Assembly (NCBI GenBank): GCA_018268995.1
Contig: JAFDVL010000009.1
Span: forward strand, 987-64,986
Length of the DNA: 64,000 nucleotides
Direction: 5' to 3'
Origin: Acidobacteriota bacterium
GTDB taxonomy: Bacteria; Acidobacteriota; Blastocatellia; RBC074
The translations under genes and the position numbers were made by a program. Every line of letters begins with the position of its first letter. Position 1 is the first letter of the stretch. Positions 18,341 through 39,060 of this stretch are shown here, in pieces. A model generated the notes under the pieces. That model had not been told where the DNA came from, searched no databases, and saw only the letters and a program-made list of their open reading frames with translations.

Positions 18341-18440
18341 CGTACCGTAGACTGTCCAGTCTGCGGAGTCACAGCGACAATTTCCTTGATCAAAACAGGA
18401 CGTTCTTGGCATCAGCCGCAGACTGGACAGTCTACGGTAC
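18341..18440. terminator. Long bidirectional hairpin between convergent genes: 25-bp perfect stem (CGTACCGTAGACTGTCCAGTCTGCGG / CCGCAGACTGGACAGTCTACGGTAC) with a 49-nt loop
   Basis: Seen directly in the sequence. It sits between the stop of the 14785..18321 gene (18321) and the stop of the minus-strand methyltransferase (18432). Confidence 0.6.
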
Positions 18441-19322
18441 AGCGTCTGCGTTCATCTGACGAATCTGTGGCAAATCCTCTTTCCGCAACAGCATCCAGAA
18501 CAAATCATCTGCCAGATAGGGCAACGGCAAATATTCCGGCAGCAAATTCAAGAGCCTCCCTGCCTGGTTTCCTAGCGGTATTCCTTCCAGCTTGTATTGC
18601 AACAATGATTTTGCGTGACCGCCGTTGATCCATTTTGAGGGTCTGCCGCATGCGACTTCTCGAAATCCATATTGTGCAGCCAGTGACTTCAGCGTCGTCG
18701 GCGAAAACCAATGCAACACGCTTGGCGGGCTGTATTCATGCCAGTTCTGGCCAAAGAATCGTGCCGCAAGGCTATCTTTGTTCCAGGTTTCGATGAGCCA
18801 ATATCCTGAAGGTTTTGTCGCATCACAGGCCACTTGCAAGGCGCGTCGCAAATCGGCGAAATGGGCGACGACTTGAATCATGCTGACGAGGTCATATGGT
18901 TCAGTGGTCTGTAAGTTTTCCAATGCGCCTGCCTGCACCGGAATCCCCAGCGTTTCACGCGCATACGACGCCATCTTCGGATTTGGCTCAATGCCGTGCC
19001 CCTGCCATCCACAATCCATAAAGCCCTGGAGCACGAAGCCGGCTGCTGCGCCTACGTCCAGCATCGTTCCCGCTGACAGATAATTCGCTAATCGCTTGCC
19101 GTACCATCGTCCGTGATTGCGCAGGATGCGCGCTTCGCCCAGGTAATCCGGGTAACCCGCGCCGCCACCCTGAAAATATTGGTCATCGTACACTTGTTGC
19201 GTGTGTGTCGCGTCAACTGAAACATCGGCGAAGCGATGGTGACAAGCTGAGCAATCGCGGATTCCATAGCCGTGAGCTGTAAATGTCACCTGACTAGATT
19301 GATTGCAAATCGGACAAAGCAT
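18432..19322 (-). CDS. Class I SAM-dependent methyltransferase with N-terminal Cys4 zinc-ribbon (last gene of the glycosylation operon)
   Basis: Zinc ribbon CPICNQ…CSACHH. Methyltransferase motif I (MLDVGAAAGFVLQGF) and post-I acidic motif. The start lies 3 bp after the stop of the upstream GT-C gene. Confidence 0.75.
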   Translation of the reverse strand: MLCPICNQSSQVTFTAHGYGIRDCSACHHRFADVSVDATHTQQVYDDQYFQGGGAGYPDYLGEARILRNHGRWYGKRLANYLSAGTMLDVGAAAGFVLQGFMDCGWQGHGIEPNPKMASYARETLGIPVQAGALENLQTTEPYDLVSMIQVVAHFADLRRALQVACDATKPSGYWLIETWNKDSLAARFFGQNWHEYSPPSVLHWFSPTTLKSLAAQYGFREVACGRPSKWINGGHAKSLLQYKLEGIPLGNQAGRLLNLLPEYLPLPYLADDLFWMLLRKEDLPQIRQMNADAVP

Positions 19323-19324
19323 TT

Positions 19325-20953
19325 CTAATCCGTAGCGTAAATCACAACCGGTTTTGTATGTGACCAGTTGGCAAATTTGTTGTTGATCTGCTGCGCTAGA
19401 TTGCTTTGCAGCAAGCCTCGTTGCGAAAGCCAGTTGGTTGTCCCTTCAACATATTTTCGCAGCCAGTTTGGCTGACGTTGATAGCGATACACCTCGCGCC
19501 AGCCGGGCGGCGGATTGATAATTTCAGGCGGGTACGAATCTTCTTTGTGATAGCTCAGCAAATACGAATTGATCGCCACATACGTGTGCTCGAACTTAAT
19601 CGGCGGAGTTGTATGCACATCTTCATCCGGCTTCGGGAGCCGGAAGTTTTTGTATCTTTCGTCCTGCTGAAAACCAGCGAAGTATTGAAGAAAGCGTTGA
19701 TCGCTGCGGTGCATATACACCGGGCGATCCTGATACTTTTGTGCAAAAGCAAAGATGGCGCGAGCATTGTCTCTGTGAGCGTGATAGCCCTCGCGTAATA
19801 AATACACAAATGAGAGCGAACTCAGCACAATCAGCGCAATCACTGTCCATTGCAATTTCCTGGCGTACTCACTGAGCCAGACAGCCGCCAACACTAGGAA
19901 TGGTGCAGTGAACATCAGCATATAAGCTTCGATTTTGTACAACGGCACGTACGGCTTTGTGCTGGTGGGATAAACGCTCAGAACCAATAAAAATGTCAGT
20001 GCCCAGAGAAACGGCATCCAACTTTCACCCAGGATGTTTTGTTTGGCTCGCCAGTATTTTTTTATTCGATGCAGCAGCATTCCCAACGACACCAGCAAGC
20101 TCAACCCCACATAATGAAAATCCACGAACATCCAGTAAAGATACAGCCCCACACTGTTTTGCACCTGAAACCCACCTGCGGTGATTGGGGCATTGGACGT
20201 TTGATCGTGTAGCACCAGATTCAACCGTGCAAACCCGCTTCCCATCACCTGCCAAAAGACGAAAAACTCAAAGGCAAAAACAAACACAAAGCCAAGTGCG
20301 AACCAGCTCCAATTCCATTCAATCCGTCGTCTGAAGAACAGCACGAGCAGAAAGAACGGCGCGATCAGAACCGCAACAAATTTGGTTGCATATGCCAGCG
20401 CCAGCGCGACGCCGCCGAAGAAATAAAACCATCGTTTGTGCTTGTGAGATTCGCTTTTGTCAGCACGCACGAAAAGATACAGGCTTAGCAATAACCAAAA
20501 ACTCAGCGGACAATCGGCCATTGGCTGCGAAGCGTAAATGATTTCCAGCGGAAACGTCGCAACGATGATTCCTGCCAGCAGCGCGGCCTGTTCATTTTTT
20601 AAATGTAGCGCCATCAGATACGCTATGGCTACAGTTCCAACCGAGGTCAGCAGCGGCCAGAGCATCGAACTGAAGTTATCCACTCCGAATAATTTGTAGC
20701 TGGCTGCCAACGGAAACAGTACTCCCCACCGTGTCGTCTGCTCATAAAAATAGGCTGGATTCCATTTCCCCTGTGCAATGTCCCAGGCAGATAAGCTATA
20801 GGTAAAAGGATCGCCCGGCGAAATCCCATGCCAGAAAATAATCCGCAGCAAGAGCGCAATTAAAAGTAGAGCGGCTAATTTAAGCAGGGACGGATTCAAG
20901 TTATTTGGCGTCACTTGCACGTTGCTGGATGTTTGCTTGGGGTGAAGCTTCAT
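19325..20953 (-). CDS. Polytopic GT-C fold glycosyltransferase of the ArnT/PMT (GT39/GT83, PMT_2) type - transfers a sugar from a polyprenyl-phosphate donor
   Basis: Contains 11 or more predicted TM helices. The N-terminal region has an acidic periplasmic-loop motif (…ISPGDPFTYSLSAWD…) in the position of the ArnT/PMT DE-loop. The C-terminal soluble periplasmic domain is about 200 aa. It is tightly linked (3-bp gap) to the next gene. Confidence 0.65.
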   Translation of the reverse strand: MKLHPKQTSSNVQVTPNNLNPSLLKLAALLLIALLLRIIFWHGISPGDPFTYSLSAWDIAQGKWNPAYFYEQTTRWGVLFPLAASYKLFGVDNFSSMLWPLLTSVGTVAIAYLMALHLKNEQAALLAGIIVATFPLEIIYASQPMADCPLSFWLLLSLYLFVRADKSESHKHKRWFYFFGGVALALAYATKFVAVLIAPFFLLVLFFRRRIEWNWSWFALGFVFVFAFEFFVFWQVMGSGFARLNLVLHDQTSNAPITAGGFQVQNSVGLYLYWMFVDFHYVGLSLLVSLGMLLHRIKKYWRAKQNILGESWMPFLWALTFLLVLSVYPTSTKPYVPLYKIEAYMLMFTAPFLVLAAVWLSEYARKLQWTVIALIVLSSLSFVYLLREGYHAHRDNARAIFAFAQKYQDRPVYMHRSDQRFLQYFAGFQQDERYKNFRLPKPDEDVHTTPPIKFEHTYVAINSYLLSYHKEDSYPPEIINPPPGWREVYRYQRQPNWLRKYVEGTTNWLSQRGLLQSNLAQQINNKFANWSHTKPVVIYATD

Positions 20954-21066
20954 TGATCACTCACCATTACGCTGTACGACCGTGGGCAGGAAAGACGAAA
21001 CTCTCAAGATAAAAGAATGAGCAATGGGGGATGGGTCATGGTTAATATTGCTGTTAGATTGGACAT

Positions 21067-22557
21067 TTAATCTCTCACGTCGAGGGGCTTGAGTTGGAAT
21101 AAGCAATAATCATTGCATTCCGCCAGCACAGGATAGATTTGTCGCAAGTCTTCTTCAAGATGTTTTTTATACCGGAAAGTGCTTTTGGCGGCGAGGTAGT
21201 ATTTCGCTCCCCGCTTAATGAATGTTGCGATGGATTCCAGGGATTGCTCTTCAATACAAACATTGAAGCCTTTGCGGTCAGCCCAATACATCATAAACGA
21301 GGCGTTATATGCGACCGGAAATCCTTCATCCTGACAGACGCCACCAGTGACCAGAATCAATTCATTTCTGGAAATCATCGCCGCGAATGATTTCGCACAG
21401 TTCATTAATTCTGATGGTTTCCAGGCTTTTGCATCAACGACAATTTGCCGCATTTGAAATAAGAGAATGCCTGCCAGACTGAAAATGCCTGCGGCTTTCA
21501 ATGCCTTGTTCCAACGTAGGTCGGTTTTTAATTGTCGAATGGCTTCAATGCCGCTGCCGATCAGCAATGCATAGCCAGGCAGGGAGACAACGTGATAATA
21601 GGCAGCCCATTGATCGCTGGTGGTTCGCGCCGCAATCAGGTAATAAGTCACCGCCGCAAAAAGCCAGCTCAGCCCATAATTGACAGGCTTTTCGCGCCAT
21701 TTCAGAAACACGCCAAGCAGGGCCAGAATGATTCCCGTCGGCATCAACACATAAAAAAGCTCCGAACGGCTGATCCCAACGATGAACGACGGATCGGTGA
21801 ATAAATCCAATCCTGCCCAATGATATTCGTTGGAAACGCCCAGCGAGTTGCCGTATTGCAACCAGAATTTGTGCGCGTGGACATACCACAATGCTCCGGG
21901 CAACAACGCCACGACGGCAAAGAGCCACAGCCGAACCTGCTTGATCGCGGCCAGACTGTATTTGCCAAGCAGCAGCAGCGTAAAAAATAAACCAATATGC
22001 GCTGCTGGAGCTTTTGCCAGAATGGCTAACGCCGTTGCTGTACAAGCGACGATGAAATGCCAGATTGCCTCACTGTCCAGCCAGCGAATGAAGAAATATC
22101 CCGCCAGCACATAGCCCAAAAACATCAGTCCTTCTGGTTGCAATGAAGTCGAAATGTTGATGAGGAGTGGATTAAAGGTGAAAAAAATAAAGGCAACGAT
22201 GGCTCCCACAGGCGGCAATAAATACCGCGCCAGCCGATAAAAACTGATGAGCGTCAGCAGCGAAAAGACAAAGTTAATGATCCGGCCCAGACGTTCGTCA
22301 AAGCCAAATAGCTTGTATCCCGCCGCAATTAACCAGGGATAGAAAGGAAACTCCATCTCGGCATAGCCGGGGCCATCGCCACGCCAGTCAACGCGCGGAT
22401 AAAACAGGTTCATGTCCTCGCGATAAAAACTGCGGGCTATTCCTGCCACATCACATTCACGCCAGGAGGGGCGATCTACCGTATGCCGCAGGTCTGCCAT
22501 TCGGATTGCCGCACCCAACAGAAAAACAACGACGAAAATCAGCGAAAATTTCTTCAT
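21067..22557 (-). CDS. Second polytopic GT-C fold glycosyltransferase of the ArnT/PMT (PMT_2) type
   Basis: Signal/TM1 MKKFSLIFVVVFLLGAAIRMA and an early loop (…RECDVAGIARSFYRED…) typical of ArnT-like proteins. It has many TM helices and a C-terminal soluble domain. Confidence 0.65.
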   Translation of the reverse strand: MKKFSLIFVVVFLLGAAIRMADLRHTVDRPSWRECDVAGIARSFYREDMNLFYPRVDWRGDGPGYAEMEFPFYPWLIAAGYKLFGFDERLGRIINFVFSLLTLISFYRLARYLLPPVGAIVAFIFFTFNPLLINISTSLQPEGLMFLGYVLAGYFFIRWLDSEAIWHFIVACTATALAILAKAPAAHIGLFFTLLLLGKYSLAAIKQVRLWLFAVVALLPGALWYVHAHKFWLQYGNSLGVSNEYHWAGLDLFTDPSFIVGISRSELFYVLMPTGIILALLGVFLKWREKPVNYGLSWLFAAVTYYLIAARTTSDQWAAYYHVVSLPGYALLIGSGIEAIRQLKTDLRWNKALKAAGIFSLAGILLFQMRQIVVDAKAWKPSELMNCAKSFAAMISRNELILVTGGVCQDEGFPVAYNASFMMYWADRKGFNVCIEEQSLESIATFIKRGAKYYLAAKSTFRYKKHLEEDLRQIYPVLAECNDYCLFQLKPLDVRD

Positions 22558-22618
22558 AGCTTCAGCATCATCTGACCGACAGAAACGACCTTGATTCAGG
22601 CCGCCTCCAGACCTTGTC

Positions 22619-24112
22619 CTAACGCAGTGATTTTGTCGTCATGACAGGTTGTAATTCATTCAGCAATTTGAAATCGCGTCGGCCAAACCGATGCCGAAAG
22701 ATCGTGCGCAGCATTCTCAGTGCTGTCTGCGCGATTTTGAAGTAGTTGGCGGAATGCTTGGATTCGCCTCCAATGCGAACGTGGTAGGACACCGGAACTT
22801 CGATGATACGTTTGTTGACTTGCAACACGGCGACCATCATTTCCGGTGCCAGTTCCGGCCCGACGCCTTTCAGCAAGGGCCGAATGCCTTGATATGTTTC
22901 GCGCCACAACGCGCGGTAAGTACATCCAACATCCGTAAAGCGCGGTTGTTGTGACCACCACAGAAGTTCCACTCCTTTGGCCACAAGCACATTGCCCCAA
23001 CGCAACAGCCCGCGCATATTCGCTGCCTGTTCGACCAATTCTTTTGTGGTGCGCGTGCCAATCACCATGTCTGCGTCTTTCAGATATTCCAGCAGCTTGC
23101 TCAGGTCACGGGATTTGAAGGAATGATCTGCCTCAACAACGACCAGAATATCGCCAATGGCGCGATCCAGCCCGTAGCGAATCGTATCACCGTAGCCTGT
23201 GAGTTTCGCCGTTTCGACGCGCGCTCCGGCTGCTGCCGCGACTTGTGCCGTGTTGTCCAGCGAAGAATTATTCACGACCAGCACTTCGTCCACCTGATCC
23301 TTGAAATCATCCACGACGAAGCCGATGGATTGCTCTTCGTTGTAGGCCGGGATCACGACACTGACTTTGCAATTCTCGAATCGCTCCGCGCGTATTTTGT
23401 ATTGCGCGTAGTTGTAATCGTCCACGGTGTTGATGTTGAAGTATTTGCCTTCCAGGAAAAACGGGCGAACGCTTCCAGTCTGCGTAGCCAACGAGTTGAT
23501 CGCGTCAATTAATTCTATGCGACCAGAACGAGGAGAAATGGGCGTTTGCCTGATCGTCGTAAAAATCTCAGGCGTGAAAACAAACGTGCCGCAGCCGAGC
23601 AAATTGTTTTCAATGATCTCTGGCTTTTCGATTAAAGAAACGATGTGGTTGTCGTTGATCTTGAGCGAATAGTTTTTCTTGATTTGATGCAGGTCTCTGG
23701 TTTGTAAAACGCCGCAAATCGCTTTTGTTTCTGCGTTGAACTGCGCCCGCAATTGTTGATGATTGGAATGATGATACAACTCGTCGCCAAGGATTGTGAC
23801 GAATGGTTCCTGTAAGACTTCCTCGGCCAGCAGCATGCCGCGCGCCAGGCCGATGTCTGGATCGTTGCATTTCAGATAGCGCAATGAAACATCCAGCGCC
23901 GCGCCGCTGCCAAAGCGACTGATGATTTGCTCGCCTTCGTAGCCGACAATGATCGTGATGTCATGAATATTAAGTTCATCGCGCAAAATTTCGATGTTGC
24001 GCTGAAGTAAGGTTTTGCCGTCAATTTCGAGTAATGGTTTCGGTAGGTATTGGGTTTTCGGAAAAGCCCGTATCCCGCGGCCAGCCGCAGGGATCAAAGC
24101 CTTGGTTATCAT
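22619..24112 (-). CDS. Bifunctional fusion: N-terminal sugar-1-phosphate nucleotidyltransferase (RmlA/GlmU-like) + C-terminal DPM1/ArnC-like GT2 glycosyltransferase domain
   Basis: The N-terminus (ITKALIPAAGRGIRAFPKTQYLPKPLLEIDGKTLLQRNIE) is the nucleotidyltransferase signature. The C-terminal half (VSVVIPAYNEEQSIGFVVDDF…VVNNSSLDNT…VVVEADHSF) is the GT2 DXD fold of polyprenyl-phosphate glycosyltransferases. Confidence 0.75.
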   Translation of the reverse strand: MITKALIPAAGRGIRAFPKTQYLPKPLLEIDGKTLLQRNIEILRDELNIHDITIIVGYEGEQIISRFGSGAALDVSLRYLKCNDPDIGLARGMLLAEEVLQEPFVTILGDELYHHSNHQQLRAQFNAETKAICGVLQTRDLHQIKKNYSLKINDNHIVSLIEKPEIIENNLLGCGTFVFTPEIFTTIRQTPISPRSGRIELIDAINSLATQTGSVRPFFLEGKYFNINTVDDYNYAQYKIRAERFENCKVSVVIPAYNEEQSIGFVVDDFKDQVDEVLVVNNSSLDNTAQVAAAAGARVETAKLTGYGDTIRYGLDRAIGDILVVVEADHSFKSRDLSKLLEYLKDADMVIGTRTTKELVEQAANMRGLLRWGNVLVAKGVELLWWSQQPRFTDVGCTYRALWRETYQGIRPLLKGVGPELAPEMMVAVLQVNKRIIEVPVSYHVRIGGESKHSANYFKIAQTALRMLRTIFRHRFGRRDFKLLNELQPVMTTKSLR

Positions 24113-24191
24113 AAACGCTCCTAATCAGAATAACTTCAGTTCAGGACTGAAGTTCGGGACACATTCCGTGAGGAGGCCGTATCTCGTTTTG

Positions 24192-25301
24192 CTAATTTGC
24201 AAATTGCTTGTCGTAGGTGAGGCTCGCCGGACTGACCAACATTAGTTCCGACTTTTTGATTGCCTCTGCATGTTGCTTCATTGGGACGACTGCAAATTCT
24301 GAACGCAACATCGCAAGCATCTCGTGGACAATAGAGACCTTTCGCTTCCCGGTCATTTGCATGCCAGGAAAGAAGGCCAATTCCTTCACATCATCACAGC
24401 CCAGAAAATCCAGTGGATGCAGAAGGATTGACGGTTGCACTCCTGCCAACTTGCACATCGTTAGTGCAGTGCGGAAATACAACTTCGCCAGCGCAGGGGA
24501 ATAGCTGCTGGCATACAACAGATAACTGATATGAATCGGAGTCTTGAAAACAGGTAACGTCGTGACCGGGATTTCGATCAACTCGCCTTCAGCAAGTTGC
24601 CATTGATATGGCTTGAGCGGGCGTAATCCTTCAGAGAACTTGCCAAATAACGCTTTCCGCTTTTCACGTTCTTCCGGCGTGAGCTTTGCCGTCGCAAAGT
24701 AATACGCACGCGCCAACGGCCCCAAATACGTGGGAAATGTCGAGCAATCGTATTCATAGCCGCGCCGTTTCAGTACGCGCAACAAGGGTTCTGAACAACT
24801 AAAGCCAGGGCCGCGAAAGCCTGTTGTGCGTTTTCCTGTGACGCGTTCAATCTGCTCTTCTGCCTGCGCGATTTCCTCTTCGATTTGTTGTTCGGTGTAC
24901 AAATGCAACCACGGTTCGTGATGAAACGAATGGTTGCCGATTTCGTGTCCCGCTTCTGCGAGAGACGCCAGCGCCTGCGCATTCTTCTCCAGCGCAGCAT
25001 CCTGCCCGACAATGAAAAATGTAATGGGTTGCTGAATCTGTTTCAGAAAGCTCAACACGCGCGGCACAACAATATCCAGATACGACGGAAAGCTTTCCCA
25101 TCCCGCATCGCCATGCGTTTTCATATACGACCATTGATTGTCGAGATCGAGCGATAAACTAGCGATGGGTTTCGTTCGTTGCATAAACTGTACAACAAAC
25201 ATCTTGTTTGTTGCTCTGAGAGGTTCTTTCCAATCTACTGTCAATGCACATCGTTCTTTGAATGTTGGCCGTTGCCCACAACGTCCAACATTCAAATTCA
25301 A
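24192..25301 (-). CDS. NodB-homology polysaccharide deacetylase (ArnD/PgdA-like)
   Basis: NodB motifs (ITFFIVGQDA…, EIGNHSFHHE). The start is uncertain: the track start at 25301 overlaps the upstream gene by 4 nt, and an internal MFVVQF start near 25202 is an alternative. Confidence 0.7.
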   Translation of the reverse strand: MNLNVGRCGQRPTFKERCALTVDWKEPLRATNKMFVVQFMQRTKPIASLSLDLDNQWSYMKTHGDAGWESFPSYLDIVVPRVLSFLKQIQQPITFFIVGQDAALEKNAQALASLAEAGHEIGNHSFHHEPWLHLYTEQQIEEEIAQAEEQIERVTGKRTTGFRGPGFSCSEPLLRVLKRRGYEYDCSTFPTYLGPLARAYYFATAKLTPEEREKRKALFGKFSEGLRPLKPYQWQLAEGELIEIPVTTLPVFKTPIHISYLLYASSYSPALAKLYFRTALTMCKLAGVQPSILLHPLDFLGCDDVKELAFFPGMQMTGKRKVSIVHEMLAMLRSEFAVVPMKQHAEAIKKSELMLVSPASLTYDKQFAN

Positions 25302-26650
25302 GCCACTTGCCGCAACGCTACGGGCTTGGCCTTCGAGGCAGACAACAATTTCGGCATCACTTGTTCTGCCAGCTTGATGCCTTCATTTACATTTAATGTG
25401 CCGTTCAAAATATGCGATGAATTCACAATGAACACGCCTGGCACGGATGTTTCCATCGCAGGAACGTTGTCTGAATAATGCAAGGTTGGCAACGGAAACA
25501 CATTGCGAACGCGCGAGACTTTGAATGCCAGCACATCATCGCGCTTGATATGCGGATACATGCGCACCAACGCCGTAATGAACCTGGCTTCAATTGCTTC
25601 GTCAGAAAGGTTCAGAATGGAATCACCTGCCGCAAAATACTTTGGCAGATAGACGAGCGTTTGCCCGCCAAATTCTCTTGGATCTACTAACGCCGACATT
25701 TCAATCACGGCAGTGAAGGGAACCCAATCCGCAGTGATGTTCGTGACATAAAATCCGGCCAAAGGTTTCTTGAGGAGTACGGAGGCACAGATGATGCCTT
25801 GATATTGCACTTCGTTCAGTTTGTGTTTTTCTGCTTCACTTAGCTGCGTGCAAACCTGCGCCGCAACATTACCCGGTACAGTGAAGACAACCTGATCGTG
25901 ATCCGCTGTGGTGCCATCCGTCATTTCAAGTCTGACCACATCATTCATTACAGAAGTCGCTTTGCTAATCCCGCTGTGAAGTCTGAGCGTGACACCTTCG
26001 CTTTTTAGAACTTCAGCAAATCGTCCTAACACGCGTGCATAGCCACCGGGCAGGTATCCAAACATTTCTTTCTTCAGCCCGGTTCGTCGGGCAGCATACA
26101 TCCGCGCAATCGTTGTCCAGATAAAGGCTGCTGATGTTTGCTGGTAATTGTCACCTAATTTTGCGCGTAACAACGGCAACCAGATTTTTTCAAACGTCCG
26201 TTTGCCGGAAAGTTTTTTGAGCCAATCTGCAACGGGGATACTTTCAAGCTTTTTCCAATCCTGGATTTTAGAGGCGTAAAAAATCGTGGCCCCCAGGCGG
26301 AATTTATCAAGCAGATTGAGCGGCGGGAATTTCAAAAATTCCACTGTATTCGACATCGAATACAGCTTGTCATCGGTATAAAATCCGGTGCGCGTTTCGA
26401 CCCACTGCATTTCTTGTTCGAGTCCTAATTCATTGAGCAAGGAGCAAAGAAAAGTGTCCGACAGGAGCGTAACGTGGTAATGCCGATCCCATGTGATGCC
26501 GCCGAATTCCCAGGCACTGGCTAAGCCACCCAGGTACGGCGCGCTTTCATACAACGTGACTTGTTTTCCTGCCTGGGTCAGCCGATGTGCGAGGGTCAGA
26601 CCAAGCATTCCCCCACCCACGACTGCCCAGGACTCTGTGTTTGCTTTCAT
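25298..26650 (-). CDS. FAD/NAD(P)-binding oxidoreductase of the amine-oxidase/protoporphyrinogen-oxidase-like family
   Basis: N-terminal Rossmann motif WAVVGGGMLGLTLAHRL…LYESAPYLGGLASAW. Confidence 0.7.
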   Translation of the reverse strand: MKANTESWAVVGGGMLGLTLAHRLTQAGKQVTLYESAPYLGGLASAWEFGGITWDRHYHVTLLSDTFLCSLLNELGLEQEMQWVETRTGFYTDDKLYSMSNTVEFLKFPPLNLLDKFRLGATIFYASKIQDWKKLESIPVADWLKKLSGKRTFEKIWLPLLRAKLGDNYQQTSAAFIWTTIARMYAARRTGLKKEMFGYLPGGYARVLGRFAEVLKSEGVTLRLHSGISKATSVMNDVVRLEMTDGTTADHDQVVFTVPGNVAAQVCTQLSEAEKHKLNEVQYQGIICASVLLKKPLAGFYVTNITADWVPFTAVIEMSALVDPREFGGQTLVYLPKYFAAGDSILNLSDEAIEARFITALVRMYPHIKRDDVLAFKVSRVRNVFPLPTLHYSDNVPAMETSVPGVFIVNSSHILNGTLNVNEGIKLAEQVMPKLLSASKAKPVALRQVA

Positions 26651-26779
26651 TCGGTAATAGTTCTATCGGTCAAGCGAAGTTCGTTGTCTCCGCCTTTTTC
26701 TGATTTGAAAATCAAGTCAGTCGCACATTCCCCAAAATGGTGAATGCCTCCTGCCGGAACACACTGAAAAACTCTTTGG

Positions 26780-27400
26780 CTATTGCGGCGGATTTAGCTC
26801 CGTCACAATTTGGTCGTTAATCTCATAGGGCAAGCCGCACACGCTGCAATCAACGATCTGCTTTTCTGTTGCTTCTGCAAAGCGCAACAACAATTGACCG
26901 CAACGACAAACCGCGCCCACCGATTTCGCCGGATGCCCAATCACCAGATGGAAGTCCGGCACTGACTTTGTCACTAGCGATCCCATCCCGATCATCGCAA
27001 AACGCCCGATGCTCAGGTCATTGCCAATCGTGCAGCCTGCGCCAATTGTCGCACCTGCTTTGACCAGCGTTGGCAACGTATGTTCATCGGGATCAGACGA
27101 CCGCAATTGTTTCAAATCCGGCGTTGTCGCACGTGGGAAACGATCATTCGTGAAAATCGTACCCGCACTGATCATCACACCGTCTTCAATTGTCACAGCA
27201 TTGCAGATGTACACCATCGCATTGATTTTGACGCGATGCCCGATGTGGACGCCATACGCAACGTACGTCTTTTCGCCGATGATGCATTCTTCGCCAATTG
27301 TGCTGGAGTGGCGAATATGAACATTATCCCAAACGCTCGTGCCTGCCCCGATTTCAACATTGCTTTCAATGAGGGCAGTCGGATGAATGCGAACGCTCAT
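26780..27400 (-). CDS. Left-handed beta-helix (hexapeptide-repeat) sugar N-acetyltransferase, WbpD/PglD-like
   Basis: Hexapeptide repeats (…IESNVEIGAGTSVWDNVHIRHSSTIGEECIIGEKTYVAYGVHIGHRVKI…). The likely start is MSVRIH at about 27400 and overlaps the stop of the upstream oxidoreductase gene (27397), so the longer track ORF start at 27478 is probably not used. Confidence 0.75.
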   Translation of the reverse strand: MSVRIHPTALIESNVEIGAGTSVWDNVHIRHSSTIGEECIIGEKTYVAYGVHIGHRVKINAMVYICNAVTIEDGVMISAGTIFTNDRFPRATTPDLKQLRSSDPDEHTLPTLVKAGATIGAGCTIGNDLSIGRFAMIGMGSLVTKSVPDFHLVIGHPAKSVGAVCRCGQLLLRFAEATEKQIVDCSVCGLPYEINDQIVTELNPPQ

Positions 27401-28446
27401 GCGATCTTCCTCAAAGAAGATTCCTGATCCACCAGCCGCAGATAATTTTGATCCAGTGCGTGGCTGACCTTTGTCCATTGATTGCGCGCCAATGCTGTAT
27501 AGGCAGCTTCGATCACTTCCACCGAAGCAATGGCATCTTGTGGAGTCACCAGCAACGCTTCTTCGCCGCGAATGCCGCCGCAGAAGTTGATGATATTGCT
27601 GCGAAACGCCTGCACTTTGTCATAGCCGTTGCCGAACACGATCCATTCATTGCTGGTATTTTGCCTGTATTTCGACGACTTCCACCCTACGACAACTGTG
27701 CCTTTGGTGCCGTGAATATTGATGTAACTTTCCAGTTCTTTGTTGATGCTCCACGAAAGATCAATACGTCCCAGCACCCCGTCGGAGCTTCGTACAAACA
27801 CTTGCGCGCATTCTTCAACCGCCAGGTTGTGCGCGCGCACACCTTCGATCACCTGCACTTCACTGACCGGCCCCAGAAAGTAGCGCATGATGTCCGCTGA
27901 ATGCGTGCCGTTATCAATTAGCACGCCGCCACCGCTAATTTCACGCTGTGAATTCCAGCGTGTGGACATATCAATGCGCGAGGTAAAAGCGTTTTCGATC
28001 AGCAGAATGTCGCCCAAAATGCCAGATCGCACGATGCTTTTGGCTCGTACCACATCTTCCACATAGCGAAATTTGGACGCCATTGTGAGCTTCACTCCAC
28101 AACGACGCGCCGTATCCAACATCAACTCGGCGCTGCTGACATCAATGCTCAAGGGCTTTTCACAGAGCACATGGACCTTACGCTGGCAAAAATGCAGGGC
28201 AATTTCGGGATGACTAACGGGCGGTGTGCAAATGATCACTGCGTCCAACGGCCATTCATCACCGAGTGCTTCATAGGAGTCGTAGCTGCGACAGCCAATC
28301 TGTTCGCCCAATTTGCGAGCAGCTTCGACATTGACATCGGCTACTCCGACGAGACGGGCGATTTTTAAATTCTTGAATGCTTGGGCGTATGCTTGGGCGA
28401 TGCCGCCAGCCCCAACCAAGCCGAAGCGAATGACTTCTTCAGCCAT
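27397..28446 (-). CDS. Gfo/Idh/MocA-family NAD-dependent sugar oxidoreductase (WbpB/GnnA-like UDP-sugar 3-dehydrogenase candidate)
   Basis: N-terminal Rossmann IRFGLVGAGGIAQAYAQAF and the EKP motif (VLCEKPLS). Confidence 0.75.
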   Translation of the reverse strand: MAEEVIRFGLVGAGGIAQAYAQAFKNLKIARLVGVADVNVEAARKLGEQIGCRSYDSYEALGDEWPLDAVIICTPPVSHPEIALHFCQRKVHVLCEKPLSIDVSSAELMLDTARRCGVKLTMASKFRYVEDVVRAKSIVRSGILGDILLIENAFTSRIDMSTRWNSQREISGGGVLIDNGTHSADIMRYFLGPVSEVQVIEGVRAHNLAVEECAQVFVRSSDGVLGRIDLSWSINKELESYINIHGTKGTVVVGWKSSKYRQNTSNEWIVFGNGYDKVQAFRSNIINFCGGIRGEEALLVTPQDAIASVEVIEAAYTALARNQWTKVSHALDQNYLRLVDQESSLRKIA

Positions 28447-28462
28447 CGTCTTGTTCCTCTGG

Positions 28463-29698
28463 TTAATTCGCTAATTCGTTCACTGCTTGATGAATCGAGT
28501 CAGCGATGTAATGAACGTGTTCGTCGTTGTAGCGTTCGTTCCAGGGCAGGACGAGAATGCTTTCCAGGCCAGAAAAAGTGCCAGGGAATTTGCTGGGGCT
28601 GTAATCAACTGCTTCAGGCCGTGCGAGTGTAAACGGCCAGCGACTATTGCCGAAGGTGCGCTGTTCTGCCAGTACCTGACATTGGAATGCAGGCTTCTGA
28701 ATGTAACGAGGCGCAGAGAATATGCCGCGCTCTTCCTTGAGTTTCTTTGCTAACCCAACCGCACCGCCGGGAATCACCGCGCCATCAACGCGCAGGCAAT
28801 ATTTCCAGTAACTGCTTTCATTGCCGGGGGCTACATACGGCGTTTCAATACCACGCACTCCGATCAGTAATTCAGATAACTGATTGGCCGTGCGACGACG
28901 TTGTTGGACTGACCAGTACATTTTGTCGAGTTGTGCTAATGCCACCGCACCTGTAATTTCATTCATTCGATAATTCAGCGCGATGAAATAATGATCAGGA
29001 TTCGGATCACCATAGCCAAATGCTTTATTGATTAGCAGGAAGATACGGCGTGCAAGTGCATCATCATTGGTGACGACTAGTCCACCTTCGCCAGTCGTGA
29101 TGTGTTTGCCTTGTTGCAAGCTGAAGCAGCCGATGTCGCCAATTGTGGCCACGTATCGCCCATGATGTTTAGCAAGAAAGGCTTGTGCCGTATCTTCAAT
29201 GACAGGAATATTGCGTGACTGCGCCAATTGCATAATTTCTGCCATCTCGCACGGATTTCCGAACAGGTGTGTGACGATAATGGCGCGTGTGCGTTCGCTC
29301 AGGCACGGTTCAATGGTTTCGGCTGTTACATTCCAGGTTTTGGGATCTACGTCGGCAAAAACCGGAATCGCGCCTTGATACAGAATCGGCGTCAAGGCTC
29401 CCATATCGGTGATTGACGTCGTGATGACTTCATCGCCGGGTTCGGGATCAATCGCTGCGACTGCAAGATGAACAGCGGCAGAGCCGGAAGTACAGGCATA
29501 GGCATGCTTCACGTCCAGTATTTCCGCAAAACGGTTTTCCAGCTTCTTGACGAACTGTCCTTTAGTGCTGGTCAAGGTGCCAGTGCGAATTGCTTCGGCC
29601 ACAAGGGCAATTTCTTCCTCGCCCAGAGTTCGCCCAGAAGCATCCTGGTCAGAAGGCAATGTAAGGATTTCTGTAGATGGTAATACGGTAGTAGTCAT
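28463..29698 (-). CDS. DegT/DnrJ/EryC1/StrS-family PLP-dependent sugar aminotransferase (WbpE/GnnB/ArnB-like)
   Basis: Family-typical motifs, including the PLP-lysine region (…GCFSLQQGKHITTGEGG…). Confidence 0.8.
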   Translation of the reverse strand: MTTTVLPSTEILTLPSDQDASGRTLGEEEIALVAEAIRTGTLTSTKGQFVKKLENRFAEILDVKHAYACTSGSAAVHLAVAAIDPEPGDEVITTSITDMGALTPILYQGAIPVFADVDPKTWNVTAETIEPCLSERTRAIIVTHLFGNPCEMAEIMQLAQSRNIPVIEDTAQAFLAKHHGRYVATIGDIGCFSLQQGKHITTGEGGLVVTNDDALARRIFLLINKAFGYGDPNPDHYFIALNYRMNEITGAVALAQLDKMYWSVQQRRRTANQLSELLIGVRGIETPYVAPGNESSYWKYCLRVDGAVIPGGAVGLAKKLKEERGIFSAPRYIQKPAFQCQVLAEQRTFGNSRWPFTLARPEAVDYSPSKFPGTFSGLESILVLPWNERYNDEHVHYIADSIHQAVNELAN

Positions 29699-29796
29699 TG
29701 GTCGTATCCTTAAAGCTGTAGGTAGATAATCTACGGGTGCTTTTTCTAAGTGTTAGGTGGTTCTTTTGGCTCGTAATCGTGGCAGATTACGGGGAG

Positions 29797-31497
29797 TTAC
29801 TTAATAGTAACATCTCTTATTTGCAGTTTTTGTTGCGAACCATCACTAATCGTGTTGCGAGATGACAAACGAAGCTTTAATAACCGGGACAAGAGCTTCA
29901 AATGTCCAAGAATTGTTTTTAAGAGTTTCATCTTAGAGTATCCGAATAATCGCACCGCTAATGTGGCTGGATACTCTACGATTTTCTTTCTTTGTATATC
30001 TAACTTACCGAGTAACTCGGCTACACCGAGGAACCCATCTTCTTCAATTACTAATTTATCAACCGCGCTTTTTCTATACACACGGAAACAACTTGTGTAC
30101 GTTGCAAGTTTTTGACGAAGAACCTGACGATAGAGAAACGAAGACCCTTTTGATAAGGTCAATCGCCAGGCTGGGACATTTAAGACTTTGCCCTCAGGGT
30201 GATAAGGAGAAGCCGTTACCAACGAAACATCTGTTTGTAACAACGGAATCATGTTTTTTAATTCGTGCGGATCATAGGTACAATCGCAATCCATTGAGCA
30301 AACGATTTCCGTTTTAGCTGCACCAATGCCAGTCATAATTGCCGCTGCTACTCCACGATTCTTTTCGTGGCGAACGATAGTAAAATTCGCCTTTGCGCCG
30401 AAAAGTTTTTTTAGTAGCTCGTTCGTTTTGTCTGTGCTGCAATCATCTACAAAAATAAAGGTTGGTCTGTACTTATCTGAGAGTGTTTCTTCGACACTTA
30501 CTAAAGTATTCGCCAGATATGGCAGCGAAGATTCTTCATTGAAGCAGGGGATGACGATACTTACAGGTACTTTAGCTGCTTCTGAAGATTGTACCTTGAT
30601 TATATCTCTGGATTTGACGGACTTACTTTTTACAAAATCAGGTCGCGGCGTTGTATCTAAGCTTAAATAGTCAGCAAAAGATGTGAAGTTGTATTTTTTT
30701 AAGTAATCCTCAATCACCCAATACATCTTCCCCAAATTGCGATAATGCCGGATTTTGGCTAGTGAAGAAGCACTGTTGATGCGCGGTTGTAAGCGATCCA
30801 GTTCCCAGACATGGAAGTACATTACAAAGGGGGCATCGAACGATTCGTGCCATTTTCTGACGGCTTGTTTGATGATCGTATGAGGGAATTGCCGAAAGAA
30901 ATTGCCCCCGGCGATTGGCATCAGAAACCCTGGCAACTTAAAAGTTGAAACGGGAAACTCCCAGAATTGCTTTTCCCCTAACTGAAGTTGATGGGCGAAT
31001 CTTCGTTCAGGGTGCGACCGCAATACTTCCATCGTTGGAGCAATGCTGGCATCGTAACTAAAACCCTCTGCGGCCAACGTCTCCAGCGCCCACAGCGCAT
31101 TCTTTAGTTGCCATCGTTGCGCCGCCCGAAAACCTAAGACCTGTTTACCGCCTGCCTCTTCAAGCGATTCACGGGCACGCAAAACATCCTCTTTGAATTC
31201 AGTTGGATTGGTTCGCGTCAGATCAAGGTTGGAATAGATCGCGATTTCGTGTCCGCGCCGGGTGATTTCCCGAATAATTTCCGGCTGGCGTTCGGCAATC
31301 CAGCCTAATGAAAAGAAGGTAACCTTAGCCTGAAACCGATCTAACAAGTCGAGCGCGACGATGGTGTTGTGTTCAAATCTGGCTTCAAAACGCGACCATT
31401 GACCGCGCTGGATTAAGTAATCGAACGCACCAACGTGATAATAATCCTCTAAGAGGACAGCTAATAGATGTTGCTTTGTCGGTAACGGCTGGGTCAT
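29797..31497 (-). CDS. Fusion protein: N-terminal polysaccharide-deacetylase-like domain (DUF3473/PEP-CTERM-locus subfamily; ArnD-like) + C-terminal DPM1/ArnC-like GT2 glycosyltransferase. First gene of a ~13 kb minus-strand operon.
   Basis: The N-terminus (…LLAVLLEDYYHVGAF…VTFFSLGWIAERQPEIIREITRRGHEIAIYS…) is the deacetylase-like domain. The C-terminal half (VSIVIPCFNEESSLPYL…IFVDDCSTDKT…CSMDCDCTYDP) is the GT2 domain. The AT-rich 430-bp region upstream (31498-31930) looks like a promoter. Confidence 0.75.
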   Translation of the reverse strand: MTQPLPTKQHLLAVLLEDYYHVGAFDYLIQRGQWSRFEARFEHNTIVALDLLDRFQAKVTFFSLGWIAERQPEIIREITRRGHEIAIYSNLDLTRTNPTEFKEDVLRARESLEEAGGKQVLGFRAAQRWQLKNALWALETLAAEGFSYDASIAPTMEVLRSHPERRFAHQLQLGEKQFWEFPVSTFKLPGFLMPIAGGNFFRQFPHTIIKQAVRKWHESFDAPFVMYFHVWELDRLQPRINSASSLAKIRHYRNLGKMYWVIEDYLKKYNFTSFADYLSLDTTPRPDFVKSKSVKSRDIIKVQSSEAAKVPVSIVIPCFNEESSLPYLANTLVSVEETLSDKYRPTFIFVDDCSTDKTNELLKKLFGAKANFTIVRHEKNRGVAAAIMTGIGAAKTEIVCSMDCDCTYDPHELKNMIPLLQTDVSLVTASPYHPEGKVLNVPAWRLTLSKGSSFLYRQVLRQKLATYTSCFRVYRKSAVDKLVIEEDGFLGVAELLGKLDIQRKKIVEYPATLAVRLFGYSKMKLLKTILGHLKLLSRLLKLRLSSRNTISDGSQQKLQIRDVTIK

Positions 31498-31930
31498 CTA
31501 TCTTAAAAATCGCTTTGGCTTACTGGGTTTGTCGGAAGGCATGCGCAGGCGAGGCTAGGCAAGTTTGTAACAATGCCTAGTCGCTTTTTTATTACAAGAC
31601 CGTGACAACTCCCATTTTTAGGCTTTTACCCTGGAAAACCCACTGTATTTACAACCCAACGAAAATGTTTATTGCACCAAGAAACTAAAAAAATATTTAT
31701 CGCAATTTACGGCAGATAAATCGCAGCACGCTTCGCTCCAGGAGAGGCAGAGCACGGATAGATATAGGAGGAGAAATGACCTCCTAATTGCCAATAGGCG
31801 CTACGGGACATTAAGCACATAAAGTAAATTAGGAATATTAGCTTGAATGGCGCGGGCACAATATACTGCCCAATGGCCGCGAACGCAAGGCGATATTTAC
31901 TTCTAAATAAAGGCTTTAACTCTGATTAAC
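31498..31930 (-). promoter_or_regulatory. AT-rich intergenic region upstream of the 10-gene minus-strand operon; probable promoter/regulatory region
   Basis: The region is markedly AT-rich relative to the flanks, with A/T runs (…CTAAAAAAATATTTATCGCAATTTACGG…). It lies between the stop of the TlpA-like gene and the start of the operon. No -35/-10 is assigned with confidence. Confidence 0.45.
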
Positions 31931-37893: not shown

Positions 37894-38916
37894 TTATTTT
37901 TCCAGCAGGCTCTTTGGCTTCCCCGGCAACTCACTGCGATAAATGCGAGCAACGCTGTAAGTGGTTCGTTGCTCCGGCGCATAATATAAACGAGCGAACA
38001 AATCGCCGATAAAGCCTAAACCGAGAAATTGCATCCCGCCCAGAAATGTTACGGCGCAGAAGAGCAACAGCGGCCCGTTTTTGATGAAGATGTCTTCGTG
38101 CCAGACAAGCTTTTTCGCCAGCAACCACGTCGCAATCATTCCCGACAAGACAATCATTGTCAGGCCGATTTTGCCGAAGAAATAAAGTGGTCTGGCCATA
38201 TAACGCAGCAAAAATCGAATTGTCAAAATATCGAACAGCACGCGAAACGTGCGCGAAATGCCGTAATGCGATTTACCTCCACCGCGCGGCATGTCTTCGA
38301 TGGGCACCTCGACAATCGAAGCGCCTTCAATATGCGCCAGTGCTGGAATGAAGCGGTGCATTTGTCCGTACAACGGAATGCGTTCCAGGATTTCGCGGCG
38401 GTAGGCTTTGAAGGTTGTGCCGAAATCGTGCAGAGGCACGCCGGAAGCCTGTGCCATTAGCCGATTGGCAATCAGCGAAGGAAACGTCCGCAAGAAGCCA
38501 TCGCGCCGATGCTGTCGCCAGCCACTGACAACATCGTAGCCGCCTTCTTCAATCTTTTCGATAAAGCGCGGAATATCTTCCGGCTTGTGCTGCTGGTCGC
38601 CGTCCATCGCGATGATGATTTCACCTTGTGCTCGATCAAAACCAGCGGCAAGACCGGCTGTTTGACCAAAGTTTCGACGTAGCCGCACGCCTAAAACGCG
38701 CGGATCAAGGGCGGCAATGTCCCGAATTAATGCCTGCGTGCGATCTGTGCTGCCGTCGTCTACCAGAATTAACTCATACTCATCTGTCACCGATTCCATC
38801 ACTTTCGTGAGGCGTTCGTACATCGGAGTTATGTTCAGTTCTTCGTTGTGAAACGGGACGACAATAGAATAACGCACGTGTGATTTTTGTTCGGATTGAG
38901 AGTTAATACTATTCAT
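37894..38916 (-). CDS. Membrane-anchored GT2 polyprenyl-phosphate glycosyltransferase (ArnC/GtrB/DPM1-like)
   Basis: GT2 motifs (YSIVVPFHNEELNI…LILVDDGSTDRT…IIAMDGDQQH). Two C-terminal TM helices (…IGLTMIVLSGMIATWLL… and …LLLFCAVTFLGGMQFLGLGFIG…) are characteristic of GtrB/ArnC. The start is probably MNSINSQ at about 38916, since the 5' extension to 39051 has no coding features. Confidence 0.8.
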   Translation of the reverse strand: MNSINSQSEQKSHVRYSIVVPFHNEELNITPMYERLTKVMESVTDEYELILVDDGSTDRTQALIRDIAALDPRVLGVRLRRNFGQTAGLAAGFDRAQGEIIIAMDGDQQHKPEDIPRFIEKIEEGGYDVVSGWRQHRRDGFLRTFPSLIANRLMAQASGVPLHDFGTTFKAYRREILERIPLYGQMHRFIPALAHIEGASIVEVPIEDMPRGGGKSHYGISRTFRVLFDILTIRFLLRYMARPLYFFGKIGLTMIVLSGMIATWLLAKKLVWHEDIFIKNGPLLLFCAVTFLGGMQFLGLGFIGDLFARLYYAPEQRTTYSVARIYRSELPGKPKSLLEK

Positions 38917-39060
38917 TGGCGAACAAAAGCTTAGAGGGCAAGCGAAAACTTTGCAAATGATTGCATGTCCGAAATGACGTGGGAAAATAGCTTGAGAAGA
39001 AAAAAGGACAGCAATTAAATTTGCTGTCCTTTCGTAGCGTGTGCATTTCACTGCATGGTT

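Follow-up and report, generated by a model that had tools for sequence, protein, structure and literature searches.

The operon at positions 18432-31497 on the minus strand of a 64,000-nucleotide stretch of contig JAFDVL010000009.1 from an Acidobacteriota bacterium (assembly GCA_018268995.1, positions 987 to 64,986), referred to hereafter as the window, raises the question of which sugar its ten genes make and where that sugar is delivered. The initial annotation regarded the operon as an undescribed counterpart of the Arn pathway, in which an amino sugar would be protected by an acetyl instead of a formyl group, flipped on a lipid carrier, deprotected and transferred to lipid A or a protein. 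Our analysis, in which all the pathway steps were inferred from homology and synteny, suggests that the operon is probably one lineage's version of a widespread cassette, by which a polyprenyl-phosphate amino sugar would be made and handed to periplasmic GT-C transferases. The general class, a lipid-linked donor combined with GT-C transfer, is the likeliest part of this proposal; a free-amine product has a slightly less than even chance, and lipid A is an improbable acceptor.

Genes of the operon and proposed pathway

Ten minus-strand open reading frames (ORFs), designated g1 to g10 in transcription order, fill exactly 18432-31497 in the ORF list of the window, in agreement with the coordinates initially assigned. 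Proteins that are 100% identical to g1 and g5 have been recorded for an Acidobacteria metagenome-assembled genome. Pfam and NCBIfam scans confirmed the product classes that had been given to them, apart from the number of family 2 glycosyltransferase (GT2) domains, which was two (g1 and g7) and not three. The ten genes are as follows.

29797-31497, minus: g1, soluble fusion of a NodB/DUF3473 domain (residues about 12-278; PF01522, PF11959) and a GT2 domain (residues about 310-542; PF00535)
28463-29698, minus: g2, DegT/DnrJ/EryC1 pyridoxal phosphate-dependent sugar aminotransferase (PF01041, 2.2e-82)
27397-28446, minus: g3, Gfo/Idh/MocA NAD-dependent sugar dehydrogenase (Pfam)
26780-27400, minus: g4, left-handed beta-helix (hexapeptide) N-acetyltransferase of the WlbB/WbpD/QdtC type (PDB 3mqg)
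25298-26650, minus: g5, flavin adenine dinucleotide (FAD)-dependent oxidoreductase with the protoporphyrinogen oxidase/phytoene desaturase/amine oxidase fold (NCBIfam PRK07233)
24192-25301, minus: g6, cytoplasmic NodB-family deacetylase with intact catalytic motifs (PF01522, 2.1e-21)
22619-24112, minus: g7, fusion of a sugar-1-phosphate nucleotidyltransferase and a DPMS/AglJ-type GT2 (PF00483, PF00535)
21067-22557, minus: g8, GT-C (PMT_2) membrane glycosyltransferase, partner of g7 (PF13231, 9.1e-17)
19325-20953, minus: g9, GT-C (PMT/PMT_2, ArnT-like fold) membrane glycosyltransferase (PF02366, PF13231)
18432-19322, minus: g10, Zn-ribbon and class I S-adenosylmethionine (SAM) methyltransferase (Methyltransf_23; PF13489, 1.8e-19)

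In the pathway that we propose, g3 would oxidize UDP-N-acetylglucosamine (UDP-GlcNAc) at C3, g2 would transaminate the resulting keto sugar and g4 would N-acetylate the new 3-amine to give UDP-2,3-diacetamido-2,3-dideoxyhexose. This would be the simplest product because neither a 4,6-dehydratase nor a 6-dehydrogenase is present, and the lack of the latter also argues against a uronic acid. The GT2 domain of g1 would load the sugar on polyprenyl phosphate at the cytoplasmic face of the membrane, and g6 would strip one N-acetyl group from the lipid-linked sugar, exposing an amine. The flavoprotein g5, predicted to be membrane-peripheral and genetically coupled to g6, would act on the same lipid-linked intermediate, and g10 may methylate the sugar. 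A flippase encoded elsewhere would move the donor across the membrane and g9 would transfer the sugar to a periplasmic acceptor, with g7 and g8, as a second, inserted module, adding a hexose likewise. The initially suggested sequence of making, acetylating, loading on lipid, deacetylating and GT-C transfer is retained as the best reading, in consideration of the type of the GT2 domain, the fold of g9, the likeness of g3 and g4 to WlbA and WlbB, the intact motifs of g6 and the synteny described below.

Conservation of the cassette across phyla

Scanning of a genome collection with an alignment of g5 returned at least 599 candidate stretches, 525 of which encoded a g5 relative. The best 80 of the at least 525 loci with a g5 relative were fetched, and the locus counts given here refer to 81 nonredundant related loci (numbered with L), which were compared with the window proteins by tblastn and whose ORFs were clustered for recurrent neighbors; the counts that depend on the flanks are for the loci with sufficient flank (71 or 66). 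The distance between g5 and g6 was at most 5 kb in 66 of 71 loci and at most 300 bp in 48 of the 71, a GT2 gene lay upstream in 59 of 66, and the complete trio of DegT aminotransferase, Gfo/Idh/MocA dehydrogenase (GFO) and hexapeptide acetyltransferase (Hexapep) genes was present in 57 of 66. The order GT2, DegT, GFO, Hexapep, FAD and NodB (g6) was kept at 50-90% identity across about ten phyla, with g2 being 62-77% identical to related-locus proteins of other phyla. The colinear core was observed in Acidobacteriota (Blastocatellia, Pyrinomonadaceae and Terriglobia), Planctomycetota, Verrucomicrobiota, Nitrospiria, Candidatus Binatia, Eremiobacterota, one Cytophagia metagenome-assembled genome and Cyanobacteria, including Pseudanabaena biceps PCC 7429 and Leptolyngbya isolates. 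The core genes travel together across phyla, as the initial annotation had supposed in treating them as one unit, and the ten-gene grouping is not a chance arrangement.

Minimal cassettes consisting only of GT2, FAD and NodB genes were found in three Pirellulales loci (L046, L053 and L058), and a short Methylomirabilis contig carried g5 and g6 only. Among the recurrent neighbors, a gene of the UDP-GlcNAc 2-epimerase family (Epimerase_2, WbpI/WecB-like) lay upstream of the cassette in 32 loci, a g10-type methyltransferase gene was present in 33, and PMT_2-like multi-transmembrane proteins fell into at least five subfamilies, found in 19, 15, 8, 7 and 4 loci. The GT-C genes took varied places in the cassettes of many phyla, sometimes between the FAD and NodB genes. 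Genes for an Rv3806c-like UbiA, WecG, Wzz and a sulfotransferase were occasional neighbors, and the last three adjoined the core in Pirellulales. The Rv3806c-like UbiA prenyl-phosphate phosphoribosyltransferase gene was located near GT-C genes in L019, L027, L034, L049, L057 and L064 (e.g., 12370-13326 in L057); by gene content, these six loci combine a putative amino-hexose module with a putative pentofuranose lipid-donor module.

Predicted synthesis of the nucleotide sugar

The best PDB chains for g3 were 3q2k and 3q2i, which we take to be the structures of Bordetella and Chromobacterium WlbA (UDP-GlcNAcA 3-dehydrogenase), and its NCBIfam match was to the archaeal UDP-GlcNAc 3-dehydrogenase (2.4e-35, below the cut-off). 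We propose that g3 is a UDP-GlcNAc 3-dehydrogenase of the WlbA/WbpB/GnnA type. The best PDB match of g4 was WlbB (3mqg, 2.3e-33), and its next matches were also N-acetyltransferases, presumably acting on 3-amino sugars. Hence g3 and g4 were nearest to WlbA and WlbB among solved structures, which supports the initial designation of a WbpB/GnnA-like dehydrogenase with an acetyltransferase. The longest ORF of g4 reaches 27478, and tblastn matches in other loci begin at residues 24-30; translation probably begins at Met27 (27400), so that g4 and g3 would overlap by 4 nt. The aminotransferase g2 best matched 7b0m, followed by perosamine synthase, with WbpE matching at 3e-38.

Proposed lipid loading by g1 and deprotection by g6

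The GT2 domain of g1, in which the motifs IVIPCFNEE, FVDDCSTD and MDCDCTYDP are readable, best matched Pyrococcus DPMS (5mlz, 1.8e-20), together with ArnC (1.5e-12) and GtrB, over the catalytic domain and interface helices. We propose that g1 is a polyprenyl-phosphate amino-sugar synthase. By their matches to DPMS, ArnC, GtrB and AglJ, the GT2 domains of both g1 and g7 are of the polyprenyl-phosphate sugar-synthase type, as their earlier description as DPM1/ArnC-like implied. The unfused GT2s of cyanobacteria and Verrucomicrobia ended in two C-terminal transmembrane helices, which are typical of GtrB/ArnC.

The NodB/DUF3473 domain fused to this GT2 had been taken for the deprotecting enzyme. 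The catalytic metal of NodB enzymes is coordinated by an Asp together with the histidines of an HxxxH motif. Alignment to solved NodB enzymes and homologs indicated that the motif region of g1 and its clade is GHEIAI--YSNLD, with a two-residue deletion and loss of both HxxxH histidines. Other fused homologs carried SRGYYH, SRGLYQ or SRGYYN, the first His being replaced with Arg and the second being variable, and the first HxxxH His was missing in nearly all of the 120 fused homologs among the matches listed. A stand-alone DUF3473 protein in the Nitrospiria locus L075 retained the canonical motif (GSHGYAH; GHEVGSHGYAHR). The nearest family to the domain of g1 was the XrtA/PEP-CTERM polysaccharide deacetylase TIGR03006, with 236 bits against a cut-off of 276. 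Furthermore, about half of the cassettes lacked the NodB/DUF3473 domain, among them those of cyanobacteria and Verrucomicrobia and most of those of Pirellulales. It is probably not the deacetylase, contrary to the initial assignment, and is more likely a sugar-binding or docking module. Our literature search found nothing on DUF3473.

The second NodB deacetylase of the initial annotation, g6, is intact in its motifs. It matched PdaA and HpPgdA in the PDB (about 1e-12), and its DLD, GNHSFxH, GFRGPG and LLHPLDF motifs were at least 90% conserved in 64 homologs of related loci. Because all the NodB motifs are kept, g6 is the credible candidate for the deprotecting deacetylase. Its homology begins near residue 40, and translation may start at Met34 or Met40. 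No transmembrane segment or signal peptide was predicted in g1 to g7 or in g10. Since g1 and g6 have no signal peptide, deacetylation would take place on the cytoplasmic face before flipping, as for ArnD, and the opposite order of flipping and then deprotecting, which the initial annotation had adopted, is unlikely.

A flavoprotein family common to two predicted classes of lipid-linked donor

The FAD oxidoreductase that had been listed is present as g5, but it had been given no role, although no other part of the cassette is as conserved (about 60-68% identity across phyla) or as distinctive. It scored 476 bits against PRK07233 (cut-off of 252), which NCBIfam labels 'hypothetical protein', and was usually translationally coupled to g6. 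By sequence, g5 was nearest to phytoene desaturase (PDS; 5mog, 7.6e-9), HpnE and protoporphyrinogen oxidase (PPO), and the fold search gave generic PPO, PDS and monoamine oxidase matches (model pLDDT 68). Our literature searches returned nothing on the PRK07233 family, and nothing on the combination of polysaccharide deacetylase, DegT, MocA, FAD-dependent oxidoreductase and ArnT.

A tblastn search of plasmids detected PRK07233 members in Burkholderia stagnalis and Agrobacterium salinitolerans (548 and 510 bits), and similar g5 matches with the same gene context were detected in Rhizobium tumorigenes and a Rhodobacteraceae strain. In these four proteobacterial plasmid clusters, the PRK07233 gene is accompanied by genes for an Rv3806c-like UbiA, a DprE1-like protein, two short-chain dehydrogenases/reductases (SDRs) and GtrA.

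3518-9757 in L085: UbiA-DprE1-SDR-SDR-PRK07233-GtrA cluster
3476-9658 in L086: UbiA-DprE1-SDR-SDR-PRK07233-GtrA cluster
4436-10603 in L087: UbiA-DprE1-SDR-SDR-PRK07233-GtrA cluster
4519-10709 in L088: UbiA-DprE1-SDR-SDR-PRK07233-GtrA cluster

The PRK07233 genes were translationally coupled to GtrA, overlapping it or lying at most 9 bp away, multi-transmembrane 'hypothetical' proteins flanked the clusters, and a SAM methyltransferase was found in two of the four. Their gene content resembles that of decaprenyl-phospho-arabinose-type pathways to which a PRK07233 flavoprotein has been added. The family accompanies two chemically unrelated pathways, with an amino hexose loaded by a GT2 in one and a pentofuranose loaded by UbiA in the other, which have in common the polyprenyl-phosphate carrier, a flipping step and a GT-C step. 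PRK07233 thus appears to be a general accessory of lipid-linked-sugar pathways, and its occurrence in UbiA/DprE1 clusters as well is the strongest single argument for placing the window cluster in the lipid-linked donor class.

Because PRK07233 is common to both pathways, occurring also in the UbiA/DprE1/DprE2/GtrA clusters, and because homologs of the family work on isoprenoid chains, we infer that g5 would rather serve the carrier or the flipping step, acting on or binding the common polyprenyl-phosphate part, than a sugar-specific reaction such as sugar oxidation. A more specific suggestion, which we regard as tentative and rather doubtful, is that PRK07233 represents a new enzymatic step on polyprenyl-phosphate monosaccharides or the carrier lipid, combined with the pseudo-NodB domain of g1 as a dead-enzyme adaptor for channeling of the lipid-linked intermediate. 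Such a step may saturate or mark the polyprenyl chain to provide a dolichol-like donor pool for the GT-C enzymes, or may build a new sugar on the lipid by oxidizing the amine or carbinol that the deacetylase has exposed.

GT-C transferases, second module and methyltransferase

Both g8 and g9 have about nine hydrophobic segments, and neither gave a sequence-level PDB match. The AlphaFold model of g9 (pLDDT 85) best matched ArnT (5ezm, E of 2.5e-7, TM-score of 0.53, 14% identity), with AglB/OST, ALG9/12 and Pmt4 close behind, and Asp48 in the first external loop was invariant. The two ArnT/PMT-like GT-Cs initially annotated were borne out in that g8 and g9 match Pfam PMT_2/PMT and g9 has ArnT as its best fold match, but not at the level of the ArnT equivalog, the score for which was far below the cut-off. 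The g9 gene lay directly behind g6 in L005 and, together with g10, behind g6 in the Binatia locus L003; g9 is likely the partner of the core cassette. Its modeled fold says nothing about the acceptor.

For g7, the NCBIfam matches were AglF (1.3e-34) and AglJ (1.8e-29), and we propose that it is an NDP-hexose (nucleoside diphosphate hexose) synthase and polyprenyl-phosphate hexose synthase in one protein. The g8 gene was always located behind g7 where the contig was long enough (L006-L010, L013 and L016), and g8-like proteins were present in 15 cassette loci. Together, g7 and g8 were found only in Blastocatellia-type loci and were missing from L005, whose g5 is 86% identical to that of the window and which carries g1 to g6, g9 and g10. 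Therefore, g7 and g8 can be regarded as an inserted second module. In g10, the N-terminal CxxC...CxxC was conserved in nearly all homologs among the matches listed, in line with its designation as a Zn-ribbon methyltransferase of class I; its PDB matches were a borderline one to the sugar C-methyltransferase TcaB9 (E of 0.009) and other, weak ones to methyltransferases.

Points against the proposed pathway

Several points weigh against the pathway as proposed. Because g2 is not specifically WbpE-like, perosamine-synthase-type chains scoring higher, the position of amination is deduced from g3 and g4 alone. The confidence of the g5 model is moderate and the reaction assigned to g5 is a guess. 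Moreover, the proteobacterial flavoproteins are only 27-28% identical to g5, and their function may differ from that of g5. Some NodB-fold enzymes, such as PuuE allantoinases, are active without the canonical metal triad, and by analogy the NodB domain of g1 might keep some activity. No flippase (GtrA, ArnE/F or EamA) was found in the cluster of the window, only relatives having EamA (L003) or GtrA (the proteobacterial clusters). Finally, the ArnB, ArnC, ArnD and ArnT equivalog scores were all far below the cut-offs.

Alternative acceptors and pathways

A true Arn-type modification of lipid A is unlikely. In that case, g1 would both load and deprotect the sugar, and g9 and/or g8 would transfer it to the lipid A phosphates for cationic-peptide resistance. 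Acidobacteriota are diderms with lipopolysaccharide (LPS), the Arn functional classes match in part and ArnT is the best structural match of g9, all of which would fit; in addition, lipid A or arabinogalactan is the target in all known precedents of the acetyl type (PMC10927774, PMC4993483). However, the NodB domain of g1 lacks both metal-ligand histidines, ArnA and ArnE/F are missing, and no two-component or PmrA-like regulator is adjacent. The equivalog scores were 63.7 bits for g1 and 32.7 bits for g7 against ArnC (NF007986, cut-off of 529 bits), 24.5 bits for g6 against ArnD (NF011923, cut-off of 382 bits; g1 not listed) and 26.7 bits for g9 against ArnT (NF009784, cut-off of 567 bits; no match for g8), and OST, ALG and PMT scored nearly equal to ArnT as fold matches of g9. 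In Pirellulales, moreover, the Wzz, WecG and sulfotransferase genes next to the core point to polysaccharide acceptors. The initially suggested lipid A target and cationic-peptide resistance have found no support.

Similarly unlikely is that the GT-Cs are protein O-glycosyltransferases of the PMT/TfpW-like type that would add the amino sugar, and by way of g7 and g8 a hexose, to secreted or envelope proteins such as pilins or S-layer proteins, an explanation that differs from the favored one in the acceptor only. The PMT family PF02366 was matched by g9 (1.2e-11), but only at profile positions 73-234, and PMT_2 by both g8 and g9; these families, PF02366 and PF13231, also span ArnT-like lipid and glycan transferases, and no MIR domain, as present in true PMTs, was matched in g8 or g9. 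Pmt4 was among the fold matches of g9, but ArnT was closer. The resemblance of g7 to the archaeal N-glycosylation enzymes AglF and AglJ and the Rv3806c-like UbiA gene in six related loci would accord with protein glycosylation, given that pilin arabinosylation in Pseudomonas uses a UbiA-type gene with a GT-C (bioRxiv 10.1101/2020.04.19.049825). No target protein gene was linked to the operon.

Less likely again is a di-N-acetylated nucleotide sugar of the Wbp/Wlb type for a cytoplasmic O-antigen or exopolysaccharide, with the GT2, NodB and FAD proteins acting on a polymer or undecaprenyl-pyrophosphate repeat and the GT-Cs being mere neighbors. The nearness of g3 and g4 to WlbA and WlbB, the Epimerase_2 gene ahead of the cassette in 32 loci, the XrtA/PEP-CTERM 'polysaccharide deacetylase' affinity of the N-terminal domain of g1 and the Wzz and WecG genes adjoining Pirellulales cassettes are all consistent with it. 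However, the window ORFs scanned included no WbpA-type UDP-GlcNAc 6-dehydrogenase, initiating phosphoglycosyltransferase, Wzx/Wzy or ABC exporter, and likewise no flippase or WbpI 2-epimerase. The GT2 matches DPMS, ArnC and GtrB over the whole catalytic and interface region and has no processive-synthase features, the GT-C genes recur within the cassette in many phyla at varied positions, and elsewhere PRK07233 has GtrA as a linked neighbor. A pathway to hopanoid or carotenoid glycosides (an HpnE/PDS-like flavoprotein with a GT2) was ruled out by the full-length DPMS/ArnC-like GT2, the recurrent GT-C genes and the lack of isoprenoid synthesis genes nearby, as was a deacetylase-synthase fusion of the poly-N-acetylglucosamine/MatB type by the lack of transmembrane segments and of a processive-synthase motif in g1.

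Operon layout and surroundings

From g10 to g1, the intergenic gaps were 2, 113, 61, 79, -4, 129, -4, 16 and 98 bp, the third-last being -4 if g4 begins at Met27 and -82 for its longest ORF. The gaps had been estimated at no more than about 100 bp with many overlaps of 1-4 nt; the largest measured 129 bp and another 113 bp, and only two junctions overlapped. With gaps of at most 129 bp, the operon contained no small multi-transmembrane ORF of the ArnE/ArnF flippase type. Promoter-like and terminator-like signals inside the operon were not in excess over shuffled sequence, and an Rfam scan of the window, including the region upstream of g1, found no family. The 79-bp spacer that separates g6 from g7, where the conserved core meets the inserted g7-g8 module, contains a hairpin at 24132-24154 (minus strand; 9-bp stem, weak T tail); this hairpin may be a partial terminator or processing site. 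The region upstream of g1 was read directly.

31498-31930, minus: upstream intergenic region, 433 bp, AT-rich, probable operon promoter region

A consensus promoter scan gave no minus-strand site within it.

The GT2 gene at 37894-39051 (minus), ArnC/PgfS-like, lies 6 kb upstream of the operon, beyond three unrelated genes, by which it was ruled out as an operon member. It is full-length (NF007986, E of 1.8e-55, 307 of 316 profile positions covered), may encode another undecaprenyl-phosphate-sugar synthase and is probably the third GT2 of the initial annotation. A 451-residue Gfo/Idh/MocA protein (39061-40416, minus) adjoins it. Convergent with the 3' end of the operon is a 1178-residue protein (14785-18321, plus) with Big_7 and GH38 C-terminal beta-sandwich domains, which may be secreted and act on glycans.

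The window also contains three large OmpR-type winged-helix and TPR regulators, one with BTAD (12047-14425, 40487-42481 and 42626-44569, all minus), and three ECF sigma factors (4377-4943, plus; 10994-11620, minus; 52668-53234, minus); none of the six adjoins the 5' end of the operon. A Ser/Thr kinase is split over the overlapping ORFs 4947-5819 (plus; Pkinase profile positions 1-147) and 5692-7878 (plus; positions 147-253, then PD40 repeats), as the result of a frameshift, of decay to a pseudogene or of misassembly. A 'planctomycete-type' PSCyt1/DUF1549/DUF1553 protein (53500-56655, minus) adjoins an FAD_oxidored protein (PF12831; 56662-58347, minus). The G+C content was about 0.45-0.51 over about 8-47 kb (8000-47000), being lowest over g1 (0.446 at 30-32 kb), and 0.54-0.60 in the flanks, the operon lying within this broad lower-G+C stretch.

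Significance

If the proposed pathway is right, the cassette would decorate the cell envelope with a 2,3-diamino sugar in partly deacetylated form, a modification that nobody has yet sought. The cassette is present in at least 525 species-representative genomes, with soil Acidobacteriota, Planctomycetota and Cyanobacteria among them. LPS, cell walls, pili and resistance to antibiotics and phages are all shaped by glycosylation in the periplasm from polyprenyl-phosphate sugars, which has been studied almost exclusively in a few pathogens. A large 'hypothetical' flavoprotein family also gains a genomic context in lipid-linked sugar metabolism in general, to which it appears to belong and by which its function becomes directly testable. 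The overall scheme would not surprise a specialist; what is unexpected is the conserved flavoprotein common to decaprenyl-phospho-arabinose-like clusters and the dead-enzyme fusion.

Comparison with known systems

The operon resembles the Arn pathway in having a pyridoxal phosphate-dependent aminotransferase, a predicted transient N-acylation of the new amine, a GT2 for undecaprenyl-phosphate loading, a cytoplasmic NodB-fold deacylase (ArnD in Arn) and a GT-C (ArnT in Arn). It differs in that the keto sugar would come from a Gfo/Idh/MocA 3-dehydrogenase, whereas it comes from ArnA in Arn, and in that the acyl group would be an acetyl group added by a hexapeptide transferase instead of a formyl group; ArnE/F are lacking, and the operon has in addition the PRK07233 flavoprotein, the methyltransferase and, fused to the GT2, the degenerate NodB domain. 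No ArnA (Formyl_trans or SDR decarboxylase domain) was found in the ten proteins or the other window ORFs scanned. The initial claim that every Arn functional class is present does not hold, in that an ArnA-like formyltransferase/decarboxylase and a flippase are lacking.

Closer in the type of acylation are Francisella FlmF2/NaxD/FlmK, Bordetella LgmABC and Mycobacterium PpgS/Rv3779, which employ an ArnC/DPM1-like GT2, on-lipid deacetylation and GT-C transfer, the mycobacterial system applying the same acetyl-type logic to arabinogalactan. NaxD is a YdjC-family and not a NodB deacetylase, and we know of no report of these systems with a PRK07233 flavoprotein or a methyltransferase. They also differ from the operon in starting from plain UDP-GalNAc or UDP-GlcNAc, without extra amination and reacetylation. 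NaxD deacetylates undecaprenyl-phosphate-linked N-acetylgalactosamine before galactosamine goes on lipid A (PMC10927774), and the Bordetella lgm genes represent an acetyl-type lipid-linked hexosamine modification (PMC4993483). The replacement of formyl by acetyl, which had been called undescribed, is therefore already known from NaxD, Bordetella Lgm and mycobacterial PpgS.

The three-component systems (GtrA/GtrB/Gtr*, CsbB/GtcA/YfhO and the ORF15/14/12 pentofuranose systems) similarly combine a polyprenyl-monophosphate donor with a GT-C, and g7 and g8 resemble their plain two-gene version. The operon differs from them in that the window lacks a flippase gene, the g7 synthase is fused to its own nucleotidyltransferase and the core includes six sugar-tailoring genes. 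Remodeling of the sugar after loading on undecaprenyl or decaprenyl phosphate is known from DprE1/E2 and ORF13 (PMC11127046). The proteobacterial decaprenyl-phospho-arabinose-type clusters (UbiA/Rv3806c, DprE1, DprE2, GtrA/Rv3789) share with the operon the PRK07233 family, GT-C-like multi-transmembrane proteins and redox tailoring on the lipid carrier, whereas their sugar is a pentofuranose from phosphoribosyl pyrophosphate and not an amino hexose, and they have no GT2, NodB or aminotransferase.

The Wbp/Wlb pathway for UDP-2,3-diacetamido-2,3-dideoxy-(gluc/mann)uronic acid is similar in g3 (WlbA/WbpB), g4 (WlbB/WbpD) and the presence of a DegT protein, and its WbpI/WecB-like 2-epimerase has a counterpart in 32 related loci but none in the window. 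Unlike in that pathway, there is no WbpA and hence no uronic acid would be made, and the product is predicted for a lipid monophosphate carrier and not for a cytoplasmic repeat unit. Taken together, the operon is set apart by the proposed feeding of a monophosphate-lipid donor by 3-amination and acetylation of the WlbA/WlbB type, the pairing of NodB with PRK07233 and the breadth of distribution, and also by its Zn-ribbon methyltransferase and its two fusions, that of pseudo-NodB in g1 and that of a nucleotidyltransferase with a GT2 in g7.

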